DNA from: an uncultured Clostridia bacterium
GTDB taxonomy: Bacteria > Bacillota > Clostridia > TANB77 > CAG-508
Length of the DNA: 60,988 nucleotides
Direction of reading: 5' to 3'
Assembly: GCA_947628395.1 (NCBI GenBank)
Contig: CANQZP010000002.1
Coordinates: 1-60,988, forward strand
The position numbers and the translations under genes were made by a program. The notes under the pieces were generated by a model. It did not search any database. It was not told the origin of the DNA and was given only the letters and a program-made list of their open reading frames with translations. Positions 15,973 through 18,766 of this stretch are shown here, one piece after another (the stretch's first letter is position 1; each line of letters starts with the position of its first letter).

Positions 15973-16743
15973 CTATAATTTTATTATATCTACATTTACA
16001 TTTAATGCTTTTATTTTATTATACACATCTTCTATTTTCTTGCTTTCTATTTCCGAAAATTTTATCATTTCTTTTCCTATTGAATCATATTTGCTTTCTG
16101 CCAAATTATGTATTTTAAATATTTCTACTTTCTTACATTTGTATTTATTAAGCAAGTCTATTATTTTTTCAATATTATGCTTTTTTAGAGTATATTCTTC
16201 TATTAATGGAATTCTAAATATGTTAATTTGATCATTTTTAGATAGGAAATCTAAATTTTTAAAATATAAATCTATATTACCATTTATAACCTTTTTGCAC
16301 TCATCCTTATCCAATATTTTTATATCTATTATAAATTCATCTATATATTTAGCAGCAATCTTTACAAAGTCAGTTGGAACTTGTAAAGCTGTCTCAATAC
16401 AAATATTTATTTTTTCTTGTTTTAATTTTATTAACAATGGTTCTAACTGCTTAATTTGTAATAACGGTTCTCCTCCAGAAAAAGTAACGCCTCCATTATT
16501 AACTTTATAATATAGCTTATCTTTTATAATTTCGCTGTATAAATCCATTAACTCTATATCTTGTCCAAAAAATCCTGATTCTTTTGTAGTTTTATTAGTA
16601 AATTTAGTTTTTTCAAAATCTATATTTTCTGGATTTGCACACCAAGGGCATCTTAAGTTACAACCTTTCAAGAATACTGTTGTTCTTATTCCTGGTCCAT
16701 CATGTAGGCTAAATCTTTGTATATTAGATACTCTTACCTTCAT
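15973..16743 (-). CDS. glycyl-radical enzyme activating protein (radical SAM, PflA-sized)
   Basis: 256 aa. N-terminus [28 protein letters not shown] carries the CxxxCxxC cluster (codons 16639-16662) and FSGGEPLL. Overlaps the upstream GRE gene by 20 nt. Confidence 0.88.
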   Translation of the reverse strand: [256 protein letters not shown]

Positions 16744-18766
16744 TTTTTAAAGCCCTTTCTATCAACAAATTTTTATAATTTTCTGGTAAGTCGTTGAAAT
16801 ATGCACTAAATCCCCATACTCTAACAATTAAGTTTTCGAAATCTTTAGGATTATTTTTAGCTTTTATTAAAATATCACTACTTGTAACATTCATTTGCAT
16901 TTGGAAAAATCCCAATGATATACTTAAAATTAAAAAATCTATCATTTTATCAAAATTATCTTCTATAAATGATGGTGTAATCATAAAATCTATTACATTT
17001 CCATTAAATCTATGATTATCATAATCTAATTTAGTTGCAAATTGTATAAGCTCTGTGTAAGCTACTGAGGCTTTGTCAGATGATATGTGAGTTCCAAATG
17101 GTTCTCCGTTTTTTCTACCATCAAATGAAGCTTCAGCTCGTTCGGCTTTACTTATATATGTTGGTGCACTATAACCAAATTTTATTTTACCTCCAAATAT
17201 ATTTTTCTGAGAATCTAGAACTTTATCAACACATCCTGTTATCATATTAGACAAATCTATTATTTCATCATTTTCAGTTCCAAATCTATTAGGTTGTTGT
17301 TTTAGTTCTCGTAATATTTCGTCTTCTTCCTTAAAATTATTTTTCCTTATTTCATTTAATTCATTTAATGTATATTTTTTTTCTTCAAATACAAATTTTT
17401 TCAAATTATATAAGCTGTTCACTACAGAACTTAAAGAAACCGCTGTTAAACCATAATTATTATATTTTGCTCCTCCAATTGAAACATCTTTTAATGCTGT
17501 ATTGCAATCATCTGTAAGCATTGATAAAAGTGGCGTTTCTTCCCATTGAATTTTATTTATCTCTTCAATATAATTAATAATATATTCTTCTAGATATTTC
17601 TTATATTTTTCTATAAGTTCTTCATATTCTGTAATTTCTTCTAAATTTTCTTCTTCCAGCATTTTATATAGAGGCTCAATATAAACAATTGAATCAATAT
17701 TGTTTTGTTCTACGCTCTTTCCTACCATTAAAGGCTCCCAACAAGCTGATGTCACATAATTATATGCATCTTCTTCATCATATCCAAATGAAATTAGTTT
17801 TGGTATTATCACATCATCATTTGAAAATAATGGACAACCTATTCCTGTTTTTATACATTTTAACGATAATTCCATTAATTCTCTTGGAACATCCTTTGTA
17901 ATTCGCAAAAAGACTTTAGGATCAGGTATTTGTAATTCCATAATAGCCTCTATAAATAAATACGTAAGTTCATTACAAAAATATGAACCATCTTTTTCTT
18001 TTCCGCCTAATATAATAATCTGACCTGTATCTCCCATTAAAACATTGCTTTTATACCAGAAATTCTGATGTAATATTTTACACATATCTTTAATCATTTC
18101 TATAGCTTCATTTCTGGTTATTTTATTATTTTTCTTATCATTATTATAAACTTCCTCTAAAATTTTATCTAACCTTCCAAGTCCATTTAAACCATGACCT
18201 AATTGCCATAAAAGTTGATTGAAAAATAATATTCTTTGTAACGATTCTTCGAATGATTCTGCTTTTTTATCTTTAATATTCATTAAAAAACTTATAATAG
18301 CTTCTTTATTTACTATATTGCTTTTTTCAATTTCCTTACATTCTCTATCTATATACTCTTCTATTCCTAATAAAAGTTCTTTTTGGTTTTCTTTATATTC
18401 ACTATCTTTTAACTTTGAATTAATATCTTTAAAATCTTTTATAGATAATTTTAAAACTTTAGAATAATCAATAGTTACATTTTCTATCATTCTATTATCT
18501 CTGTGAATAGTTTTATAAATATCAAGATTGTATACGAATCTATCTTCATCATTTATTTTTATATTTACTTTATTAAATAATTTTCTTATTTGCTTACCTT
18601 TTATAAATTTTTTACTAGGTGCATAAAATTTAAATAAAGCTTTAATAGCAAAAATTATTGTTTTTAATATACTTTTACATTTTCTTTTATATTTGTATAC
18701 TAATTTAATATATACTAAGAATGTTTCACTAAAATTATTTAATATAAAATTTTTAATCCACTGCAC
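16724..18766 (-). CDS. glycyl-radical enzyme, PFL2/dehydratase-like, unusually short
   Basis: 680 aa. C-terminal fingerprint IVRVWGFSAYF (Gly652, codon 16811-16813). Cys loop TSACWEP (Cys342, codon 17741-17743; Glu344) lies 310 residues upstream. FDGRKNGEPFG and IIILGG resemble PFL2-family motifs. The start is uncertain: the first ~90 aa are basic/hydrophobic and overlap wzx by 14 nt. Confidence 0.8.
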   Translation of the reverse strand: MQWIKNFILNNFSETFLVYIKLVYKYKRKCKSILKTIIFAIKALFKFYAPSKKFIKGKQIRKLFNKVNIKINDEDRFVYNLDIYKTIHRDNRMIENVTIDYSKVLKLSIKDFKDINSKLKDSEYKENQKELLLGIEEYIDRECKEIEKSNIVNKEAIISFLMNIKDKKAESFEESLQRILFFNQLLWQLGHGLNGLGRLDKILEEVYNNDKKNNKITRNEAIEMIKDMCKILHQNFWYKSNVLMGDTGQIIILGGKEKDGSYFCNELTYLFIEAIMELQIPDPKVFLRITKDVPRELMELSLKCIKTGIGCPLFSNDDVIIPKLISFGYDEEDAYNYVTSACWEPLMVGKSVEQNNIDSIVYIEPLYKMLEEENLEEITEYEELIEKYKKYLEEYIINYIEEINKIQWEETPLLSMLTDDCNTALKDVSIGGAKYNNYGLTAVSLSSVVNSLYNLKKFVFEEKKYTLNELNEIRKNNFKEEDEILRELKQQPNRFGTENDEIIDLSNMITGCVDKVLDSQKNIFGGKIKFGYSAPTYISKAERAEASFDGRKNGEPFGTHISSDKASVAYTELIQFATKLDYDNHRFNGNVIDFMITPSFIEDNFDKMIDFLILSISLGFFQMQMNVTSSDILIKAKNNPKDFENLIVRVWGFSAYFNDLPENYKNLLIERALKNEGKSI

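Follow-up and report, generated by a model that had tools for sequence, protein, structure and literature searches.

A divergent glycyl radical enzyme and its activase in a surface-polysaccharide locus of an uncultured Clostridia bacterium: a candidate radical eliminase of glycan assembly

Introduction

What does a glycyl radical enzyme (GRE) do in the middle of a polysaccharide locus? The question is raised by a stretch of 60,988 nucleotides (nt) from an uncultured Clostridia bacterium (GenBank assembly GCA_947628395.1, contig CANQZP010000002.1, positions 1 to 60,988; hereafter, the window), in which a GRE of 680 amino acids (aa) and its predicted activase are encoded between a Wzx-type flippase and Glf, the UDP-galactopyranose mutase. 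GREs are known for their roles in fermentation, catabolism, hydrocarbon activation, and ribonucleotide reduction. An earlier note on this DNA had called attention to the pair, had stated that it knew of no GRE assigned to glycan assembly, and had proposed the C5-C6 diol of UDP-galactofuranose (UDP-Galf) as a candidate substrate. In line with the second of these statements, the current review of GREs lists no such enzyme, and the terms polysaccharide, glycan, flippase, cell wall, and membrane are all absent from its text (Imrich et al., June 2026 review), and a literature search linking GREs or pyruvate formate-lyase to galactofuranose, flippases, or polysaccharide synthesis found nothing relevant. 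The analysis reported here gives moderate preference to a dedicated GRE system of glycan assembly, in which an eliminase of the CxE (Cys-x-Glu) class would act on a lipid- or nucleotide-linked sugar, with galactofuranose as its likeliest target.

A divergent glycyl radical enzyme of the CxE class

By its motifs and family matches, the 680-aa open reading frame (ORF) is an intact but very divergent GRE of the CxE class. It matches the Pfam families PFL-like (PF02901, 3.1e-74) and Gly_radical (PF01228, 1.2e-11), and Gly652, the predicted radical site, is invariant across 69 family members. The RVWGF sequence around it departs from the strict PROSITE glycyl-radical pattern (W for C/S/A and F for Y), and the hidden Markov model (HMM) match is significant all the same. 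The predicted thiyl Cys and the catalytic Glu lie in the context A-C342-W-E344-P, which corresponds in the alignment to C433-V-E435 of glycerol dehydratase and to C-V-E of PflD, and this loop is near-invariant in the family, down to 24% identity. The CxE motif is common to all GRE eliminases and isomerases, in which the Glu hydrogen-bonds or deprotonates a substrate hydroxyl (Imrich et al., June 2026 review).

No subfamily or equivalog GRE model of NCBIfam reaches its cut-off with the window GRE. Specifically, the best model, TIGR01774 (PFL2/glycerol dehydratase subfamily), scores 250 bits against a cut-off of 678, and the others score lower still (NF007437, 206 against 1109; HypD, 195 against 1100; CutC, 176 against 1050; HpfG/HpsG, 162-177 against 1000). 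Pyruvate formate-lyase was considered and rejected on the basis of the single Cys (A-C-W, not C-C) and of a TIGR01255 score of 30 bits against 994. The closest structures in the PDB by sequence are those of B12-independent glycerol dehydratase (1e-51), followed by PflD and CutC. The AlphaFold2 (AF2) model, computed with 69 family sequences (pLDDT 95.3, pTM 0.94), is matched by Foldseek to more than 40 GRE structures, including HypD, with TM-scores of 0.74-0.84; for glycerol/propanediol dehydratase, PflD, and CutC, the scores are 0.78-0.84 and the identities 20-24%.

Translation of the window verified all the coordinates and motifs that the earlier note had given for Gly652, Cys342, and Glu344; its gene boundaries are exact (overlaps of 20 nt between the GRE and activase genes and of 14 nt between wzx and the GRE gene; a gap of 34 nt between the activase gene and glf), and the HMM searches it had recommended all returned significant matches (PFL-like, Gly_radical, Radical_SAM, and the activase TIGRFAM). 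Its assignment of the protein to the CxE (eliminase/isomerase) type, divergent from every characterised GRE, holds as well, while two of its remarks on length need adjustment. The distance from Cys to Gly is indeed 310 residues, which is similar, not identical, to the 315 of PflB with which it had been equated, and glycerol dehydratase has 330. The enzyme is indeed short, and in the alignment to glycerol dehydratase only about two thirds of the deficit is N-terminal, the offset growing from 68 residues at query position 71 to 91 at the Cys and 111 at the Gly.

The adjoining ORF was named an activase in the earlier note, and the naming is borne out by its CX3CX2C motif and by TIGR02494, which reaches 213.6 bits (cut-off 174) over two matched stretches that skip model positions ~50-98; Pfam recognises Radical_SAM and Fer4_12 in the same protein. 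The 256-aa sequence holds no additional Cys motifs, and the ferredoxin-like auxiliary-cluster domain, typical though not defining for activases of the CxE class, is absent. Minimal activases made only of the radical-SAM domain are otherwise known only for pyruvate formate-lyase (PFL-AE) and ribonucleotide reductase (RNR-AE) (Imrich et al., June 2026 review).

A family of short glycyl radical enzymes tied to glycan loci

The window GRE belongs to a large family of short GREs (640-700 aa) without existing annotation. More than 120 unnamed proteins, 675-700 aa long and with identities of 53-77%, came up in a word-indexed protein search. A phmmer scan, exhaustive over 1.84 billion representative sequences, yielded well over 100 clusters (formed at 50% identity) whose members are 640-700 aa long and score above 350 bits, compared with ~180 bits for the characterised GREs. 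Relatives are present in at least 236 genomes in a scan of one genome per species. The bacterial hosts include uncultured Clostridia, Bacilli, Lachnospiraceae, Oscillospiraceae, Hungatella, Coriobacteriales/Eggerthellaceae, Anaeroplasmataceae, and a spirochaete, Breznakiella homolactica (complete genome), and the archaeal hosts include many Methanobrevibacter metagenome-assembled genomes (MAGs) as well as Methanosphaera records, in which the protein is labelled 'hypothetical'. The archaeal assignment is backed by archaeal genes (NAC, archaeosine TGT) that flank the system and by the Methanosphaera records; lone short MAG contigs, such as that of Muribaculaceae, could be mis-binned. The characterised PFL-like GREs are all bacterial, with no archaeal one of known function (Imrich et al., June 2026 review).

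The ORFs around the GRE were clustered in 84 non-redundant loci, and the counts given here refer to the 44 that extend 5 kb or more on either side of the GRE. All 44 are glycan loci, each with glycosyltransferases (GTs) or Wzx, and the loci without a called Glf have GTs, DUF4422, or Wzx in 13 cases out of 13. Within 10 kb of the GRE, an activase is found in 40 of the 44 loci (at 3 kb or less in 39), the Wzx subfamily of the window in 35, and Glf in 31. This Wzx subfamily (41-76% identity) directly adjoins the GRE in most loci. The commonest order is GT2(c6)-Wzx-GRE-AE-(c7)-Glf, where GT2 is a family 2 glycosyltransferase, AE the activase, and c6 and c7 are protein clusters; alternatively, Wzx lies between the GRE and the activase (GRE-Wzx-AE). 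Four unrelated neighbourhoods all present Wzx-GRE-activase-Glf with glycosyltransferases, and more remote relatives are arranged as GT2-Glf-GRE-AE-Wzx (33% identity) and GRE-AE-DUF4422-x-GT8-DUF4422 (30% identity).

Moreover, the GRE occurs fused to proteins of glycan assembly. Three clusters of GT2-GRE proteins (~988 aa) carry the GT2 domain at the N-terminus, and two clusters of Wzx-GRE proteins (1053-1125 aa; P0188, P0221) include a complete Wzx. Two GT2-GRE proteins are 51% identical over the full length, linker included, and two Wzx-GRE proteins are 38% identical over the full length, so the fusions are old and conserved and not artefacts of assembly. The GT2 domains of the fusions P0133 and P0138 match the GT2 encoded next to the flippase in the window (20234-21178) and its cluster; downstream of one GT2-GRE fusion come the activase and Glf, and downstream of one Wzx-GRE fusion comes the activase. 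The placement in a glycan locus, which the earlier note had described for the window, recurs in every homologous locus examined, in bacteria and archaea, and is reinforced by these fusions, and the survey of homologues that it had called for finds them linked to wzx, glf, and glycosyltransferases. A role of the GRE family in glycan assembly is, in our judgement, highly likely, and the enzyme very probably modifies chemically a sugar building block of the surface polymer.

A side branch deserves separate mention. A 666-aa cousin at 28% identity (locus L176, 6141-9001) retains the C-W-E, D-N-G-Q, and RVWGW motifs, and the cousin and its activase adjoin an AraC regulator, a MalK-type ABC importer, a solute-binding protein, and GH43, which suggests a catabolic branch of the short-GRE clade acting on a free sugar.

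Probable proximity to the membrane

The N-terminal 60 residues of the GRE stand in for ~138 residues of canonical GREs. In the AF2 model they are predicted to form helices at 2-11, 14-30, and 33-46; their net charge is +13 in the window GRE and ranges from +9 to +21 in 18 homologues, and in hydrophobic moment they rank in the protein's top percentiles. In the Wzx-GRE fusions, the flippase takes the place of the first ~40 residues of the GRE, and a GRE tethered at the cytoplasmic end of a flippase for lipid-linked oligosaccharides must work at the membrane. Taken together, the Wzx fusions and the cationic amphipathic N-terminus would place the GRE in proximity to the membrane, and the fusions and the cationic N-terminus suggest a lipid-linked substrate at least as much as a free sugar nucleotide.

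The link to galactofuranose

The association with Glf was controlled by comparing GRE-positive and GRE-negative loci anchored on the Wzx subfamily, with 5-kb flanks. Glf lies within 5 kb of Wzx in 38 of the 44 GRE-positive and 12 of the 24 GRE-negative loci (p=0.003), and Glf or DUF4422 in 40/44 and 14/24, respectively (p=0.003); the enrichment of Glf persists after dereplication at 70% Wzx identity (22/26 vs 6/16, p=0.003), and the remote members at 33% and 30% identity still adjoin Glf or DUF4422. In round figures, Glf accompanies 85% of the GRE-positive loci and 38-50% of their GRE-less siblings with this Wzx subfamily. Conversely, most of 80 metagenome loci with the window's Wzx subfamily (44-71% identity) have no GRE, and Wzx is often directly beside Glf in them. 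Wzx-Glf is a common base module and the GRE-AE pair an optional insert, and a GRE-specific Wzx subfamily is ruled out by the same loci. As a side observation, this Wzx subfamily is unusually conserved for a flippase and is spread over many gut metagenomes (L093-L172); the conserved Wzx-Glf cassette may mark a common class of galactofuranose-containing units in gut Firmicutes.

Two further candidates were examined and dismissed. A specialised mutase acting on the GRE product is ruled out since Glf identities are alike within and between the GRE-positive and GRE-negative sets, and no column of the Glf alignment separates the two groups of loci, whose sequences are interleaved. Glf being ordinary, any GRE step on galactofuranose would follow Glf. 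A linked reductase or epimerase is ruled out in turn, as short-chain dehydrogenase/reductase (SDR) genes are not enriched in GRE-positive loci.

Cluster c7 comprises proteins of ~320 aa without annotation, with an invariant D-E-D and a predicted GT-A fold (pLDDT 93.6) that Foldseek matches only to glycosyltransferases. Its members are often wedged among Wzx, the GRE/activase pair, and Glf, and they occur in 16 of the 44 GRE-positive and none of the 24 GRE-negative loci. As a GRE-dependent partner or reductase, c7 was rejected in view of its GT-A fold, its presence without GRE in Heyndrickxia coagulans, and its absence from the window; it is probably a new glycosyltransferase family tied to galactofuranose.

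A group of Lachnospiraceae loci (L086-L088, ~9400-18500) contains the GRE and no glf. A small NAD-binding-like ORF lies upstream of the GRE, and a long GT2 of the c6 type, two cytidylyltransferase-like proteins, and two xylose-isomerase-like TIM-barrel proteins are encoded downstream. These loci may form a sub-branch whose enzyme acts on another terminal diol, for instance glycerol phosphate or a heptose.

The predicted substrate pocket

The residues that bind the substrate in glycerol dehydratase are largely exchanged in the window GRE: His164 is replaced by Asn96, Tyr339 by Gly248, Asp447 by Asn356, and Val434 by Trp343, while Ser282 corresponds to residue 192, which is variable in the family. 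At the alignment positions that contact the substrate in glycerol dehydratase, N96, D246, G248, Q249, W343, N356, and N588 are near-invariant in the family, down to ~24% identity, and G248 corresponds to the Gly of the PTGY loop of PflD and not to the Tyr of glycerol dehydratase. The alignment outlines a putative pocket that is conserved and polar (Asn/Asp/Gln/His), with a Trp beside the catalytic Cys, and that appears carbohydrate-like. His164 of glycerol dehydratase is the proposed acid that protonates the leaving hydroxyl (Imrich et al., June 2026 review). With Asn96 in its place, a simple dehydration of the glycerol dehydratase kind cannot be taken for granted, and one has to postulate some other acid or a substituent that leaves more readily.

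Proposed mechanism

The identity of the GRE and of its activase, their catalytic motifs, their genomic linkage, and the fusions are evident at the level of sequence and provide the frame for the following scheme. The activase, by means of its C28/C32/C35 cluster and S-adenosylmethionine (SAM), would abstract a hydrogen from Gly652, and the radical would be relayed from Gly652 to Cys342. The Cys342 thiyl would then take a hydrogen from a carbinol carbon of the carbohydrate, Glu344 would deprotonate the hydroxyl on that carbon, the neighbouring C-O substituent would depart in a 1,2-elimination, and Cys342 would give the hydrogen back, leaving a deoxy-carbonyl sugar. On the cytoplasmic side of the membrane, the enzyme would meet its substrate, a sugar belonging to a precursor linked to a nucleotide or to a polyprenyl carrier, and the modified unit would pass to the neighbouring GT2 and be exported by the adjacent Wzx. 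In this scheme, the GRE system would be an optional, strictly anaerobic decoration module set into the common Wzx-Glf cassette. By analogy with the characterised members of the class, we lean, without great assurance, towards a CxE-type C-O elimination on a carbohydrate.

The likeliest target may be galactofuranose supplied by the adjacent Glf, as its exocyclic C5-C6 diol is glycerol-like; both this target and the carbon attacked are guesses. By our own reasoning, NAD-dependent 4,6-dehydratases cannot process galactofuranose because O4 is in the ring, and with that route closed, a radical route would make chemical sense. It is possible, with the balance tipping slightly to the other side, that the family represents the first GRE class for glycan biosynthesis, that is, a membrane-associated radical eliminase by which a furanose (galactofuranose) would lose an oxygen while still attached to its lipid or nucleotide carrier, just before export by Wzx.

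Weighing the alternatives

Several observations weigh against the reading put forward here. A cousin at 28% identity lies in the catabolic-looking locus L176. The enrichment of Glf loses significance in the small sample left after dereplication at 60%, and part of the Glf linkage is context, since Wzx-Glf is frequent without GRE. About 10-15% of the GRE loci have no galactofuranose gene within reach, with neither Glf nor DUF4422 within 8-10 kb in L084, L086-L088, L030, L083, and L067. The general acid His164 is replaced by Asn96, and no reductase or aminotransferase that could take up a carbonyl product is consistently linked in the GRE loci compared. The C5-C6 diol of UDP-Galf, the substrate proposed in the earlier note, is favoured by the glf/DUF4422 enrichment, by the members at 30-33% identity, and by the diol dehydratases among the best matches, and is weakened by Wzx-Glf modules without GRE, by the loci devoid of galactofuranose genes, by Asn96, by the lack of a linked reductase, and by the hints of a lipid-linked substrate. 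That galactofuranose is the residue attacked by the GRE is a tentative view, with more doubt than belief.

The note's substrate taken as the free nucleotide sugar would have the GRE dehydrate the C5-C6 diol of UDP-Galf to UDP-5-deoxy-hexodialdose or UDP-6-deoxy-5-ketohexofuranose, for transfer by a dedicated GT. The GRE-AE-Glf order with its 34-nt gap in the window recurs widely, Glf is enriched beside the GRE, the top matches are glycerol and propanediol dehydratases, and c7 (16/44 vs 0/24) could be the transferase for the modified donor; c7, however, is not found in the window and is present in Heyndrickxia coagulans without a GRE, the general-acid His is missing, some GRE loci are without galactofuranose genes, and the cationic N-terminus, like the fusions with Wzx and GT2, hints at lipid-linked material at the membrane, all of which renders this route unlikely. 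Another possibility is an attack on the ring: the GRE would deoxygenate a ring vicinal diol of another common sugar, nucleotide-linked or on a polyprenyl-diphosphate primer, to a deoxy-keto sugar, and the Glf link would be contextual. Analogues of such chemistry are the radical-SAM diol dehydratase AprD4 and the first half-reaction of class III ribonucleotide reductase. The pocket is invariant despite the varying sets of GTs, 10-15% of the loci are without Glf and DUF4422, G248 matches PflD, which binds a pyranose ring, and the GT2 fused to the GRE is of the WbbL/GlfT1-like type, whose members act on acceptors of the polyprenyl-diphosphate-N-acetylglucosamine type. Against this, the enrichment of Glf survives the comparison with sibling loci and reaches remote family members, and no reductase is linked, which leaves the ring diol an improbable target.

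The resemblance to PflD could instead point to an isomerase of the PflD/YbiW kind, which would cleave a ring or glycosidic C-O bond (or eliminate a phosphate ester) and rearrange the sugar with no net loss of water. PflD ranks high among the matches in both sequence and fold, the CxE motif is common to isomerases, and a leaving group less dependent on protonation would fit the missing acid His; yet if the ring were opened beside an activated anomeric centre, the donor would be lost or the glycan set free, the PflD-type model NF007437 reaches only 206 of its 1109 bits, and the four neighbourhoods offer no aldolase or phosphotransferase system (PTS) context, so that we deem an isomerase very unlikely. 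It is hardly credible that the protein is an everyday catabolic GRE for a small metabolite (glycerol, propanediol, choline) that lies in a polysaccharide locus by chance: glycerol dehydratase is the top PDB match and the relative at 28% identity adjoins an ABC importer and GH43, but the 44 full-flank loci are glycan loci without exception, across phyla and domains, the GT2 and Wzx fusions are conserved, the substrate residues of glycerol dehydratase are replaced, and the window has no microcompartment, aldehyde dehydrogenase, or transporter genes. A dedicated eliminase of glycan assembly is the reading retained in what follows.

Layout of the locus and neighbouring genes

The window has ~25% GC and carries nearly every gene on the minus strand (Table 1). 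It carries a locus for a rhamnose/galactofuranose wall polysaccharide in two parts (rhamnan and side unit): its rmlABCD and galE genes all exceed equivalog cut-offs, and around the GRE pair lie ~ten glycosyltransferases (many of them GT2), Wzm/Wzt, and GtrA. The host is a spore-forming, Clostridia-like organism, with a spore photoproduct lyase at 123-1121. A scan for promoters and terminators in this AT-rich DNA gave the same counts as shuffled sequence.

Table 1. Coordinates of the main features of the window and of the c7 proteins of related loci
Feature	Position	Strand	Remarks
GRE ORF	16724-18766	-	680 aa, GTG start; short CxE-type GRE of a glycan-locus family without prior characterisation
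GRE N-terminal 60 residues	18587-18766	-	Possible membrane-surface anchor; three poorly conserved cationic amphipathic helices
Cys loop C342-W343-E344	17735-17743	-	Predicted thiyl Cys and catalytic Glu; from translation
Gly652 codon	16811-16813	-	Predicted glycyl radical site in VRVWG652FSAYF (translation of codons 16796-16825)
Radical-SAM activase ORF	15973-16743	-	256 aa
CX3CX2C motif of the activase	16639-16662	-	[4Fe-4S]/SAM motif (C28, C32, C35); translates to CNLRCPWC
Wzx-type MOP flippase	18753-20222	-	Pfam Polysacc_synt, 2.7e-30
Glf, UDP-galactopyranose mutase	14832-15938	-	TIGR00031, 429 bits (cut-off 304)
GalE	10043-11050	-	TIGR01179, 414 bits (cut-off 262); would feed UDP-galactopyranose to Glf
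GT2, WbbL/GlfT1-like subgroup	20234-21178	-	Pfam GT2
Second GT2 of the same operon-like block	21222-22280	-	Pfam GT2, 1.1e-35; cluster c3
c7 member, L006	12796-13764
c7 member, L001	9045-9992
c7 members, L007	6540-7520 and 8967-9953
c7 member, L178	9001-9960

The WbbL/GlfT1-like GT2 has a rhamnosyltransferase subfamily and GlfT1 as its top NCBIfam matches, both below the cut-off, and a sequence search of the PDB with it gave no match. The cluster of the second GT2, c3, is present in 26 of the 44 GRE loci and is not enriched over GRE-less loci. Further upstream, at 22255-23366 (minus strand), lie a PpgS/GtrB-like polyprenyl-phosphate glycosyltransferase (242 aa) and a 127-aa partner, whose cluster-mates in L005 and L006 belong to Pfam DUF2304; we take this arrangement to recall the mycobacterial PpgS/Rv3632 pair. 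The cluster of the PpgS/GtrB-like GT2 is found in 16/44 GRE-positive and 1/24 GRE-negative loci, and this enrichment is weaker after dereplication. Two overlapping ORFs of 303 and 286 aa at 25429-27121 (minus strand) have no convincing family match; their summed size fits the DUF2142/DUF6020 membrane proteins found at the same position in L005 and L006, and the pair may be a split or frameshifted GT-C-like gene.

Between glf and galE, the minus strand encodes a 1204-aa protein (11148-14762) that ends in a GH25 muramidase domain and contains ~six near-identical ricin-B lectin repeats, of which the plus-strand ORFs at 12656-14386 are shadows; in locus L009, a GH25 protein likewise comes after glf and an acyltransferase. 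The window protein may be an autolysin targeted to the wall polysaccharide. Lastly, metK, coding for SAM synthetase, lies inside the polysaccharide locus (35120-36250, minus strand), flanked by a Wzm permease (36265-37056) and by GtrA/GT2, with a methyltransferase (30487-31608) and Wzt (31613-32911) nearby; SAM is the co-substrate of the GRE activase as well as of the methyltransferase.

Implications

If the proposed reading is true, glycobiology would gain a new type of reaction, the radical deoxygenation or rearrangement of sugars, beyond the reach of NAD-dependent 4,6-dehydratases (e.g., on a furanose side chain), and new deoxy or carbonyl sugars would be predicted on the surfaces of abundant gut Clostridia, Lachnospiraceae, and Methanobrevibacter. 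A surface antigen of this kind would depend on strict anoxia and would be relevant to phage receptors and immune recognition, and an archaeal PFL-like GRE would receive its first functional assignment. The natural GT2-GRE and Wzx-GRE fusions would provide handles on the hand-over of lipid-linked intermediates to flippases, and cultured hosts exist, namely Breznakiella homolactica RmG30 and Lachnospiraceae isolates. The system, with a chemistry predicted from sequence and context, is of interest to both GRE enzymology and microbial glycobiology.

Comparison with known systems

Radical dehydration of a 1,2-diol on a sugar, for the purpose of deoxygenation, is carried out by AprD4 in apramycin biosynthesis. 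AprD4 is a radical-SAM enzyme that uses SAM stoichiometrically and not a GRE, and it is paired with the reductase AprD3, whereas no AprD3-like partner is linked to the GRE loci. The only well-known biosynthetic GRE is the class III ribonucleotide reductase NrdD, with its activase NrdG, which removes the hydroxyl next to the radical on the furanose ring of a nucleotide. Like the window activase and PFL-AE, NrdG consists of the radical-SAM domain only; NrdD, by contrast, needs an external reductant, has no CxE loop, and shows no detectable sequence relationship to the window GRE beyond the superfamily.

PflD/YbiW (8ID0, 8YJO, 8ID7) are isomerases that cleave the ring C-O bond of 1,5-anhydrohexitol-6-phosphates, that is, CxE GREs working on a sugar ring, and testify that GREs are able to perform radical C-O chemistry on carbohydrates (Imrich et al., June 2026 review). 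PflD provides the second-best sequence matches and the best TM-score to the window GRE (0.84), and the T-G of its 'PTGY' loop matches the D-T-G-Q of the window GRE family. They differ in being catabolic ('anhydroglycolysis'), in sharing only 21-23% identity with the window GRE, and in having no glycosyltransferase or flippase neighbours; the window GRE stays outside their NF007437 model by a wide margin and is surrounded by GTs, Wzx, and Glf.

Among characterised enzymes, the closest by sequence are the glycerol dehydratase of C. butyricum (1R8W/1R9D) and the propanediol dehydratase of R. inulinivorans (5I2G), with a best match of 1e-51 and TM-scores of 0.78-0.80. Like the window GRE, they have a ten-stranded barrel, a C-x-E-P loop with a single catalytic Cys, and, close to the C-terminus, a Gly loop, and their substrates are terminal vicinal diols, which resemble the side chain of galactofuranose. 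The window GRE is 23-24% identical to them and 107 residues shorter, its N-terminus is remodelled and cationic, its substrate residues are replaced, and its activase is without the ferredoxin domain. Whereas the glycerol and propanediol dehydratases belong to fermentation and microcompartments, the window GRE stands in a biosynthetic glycan context.

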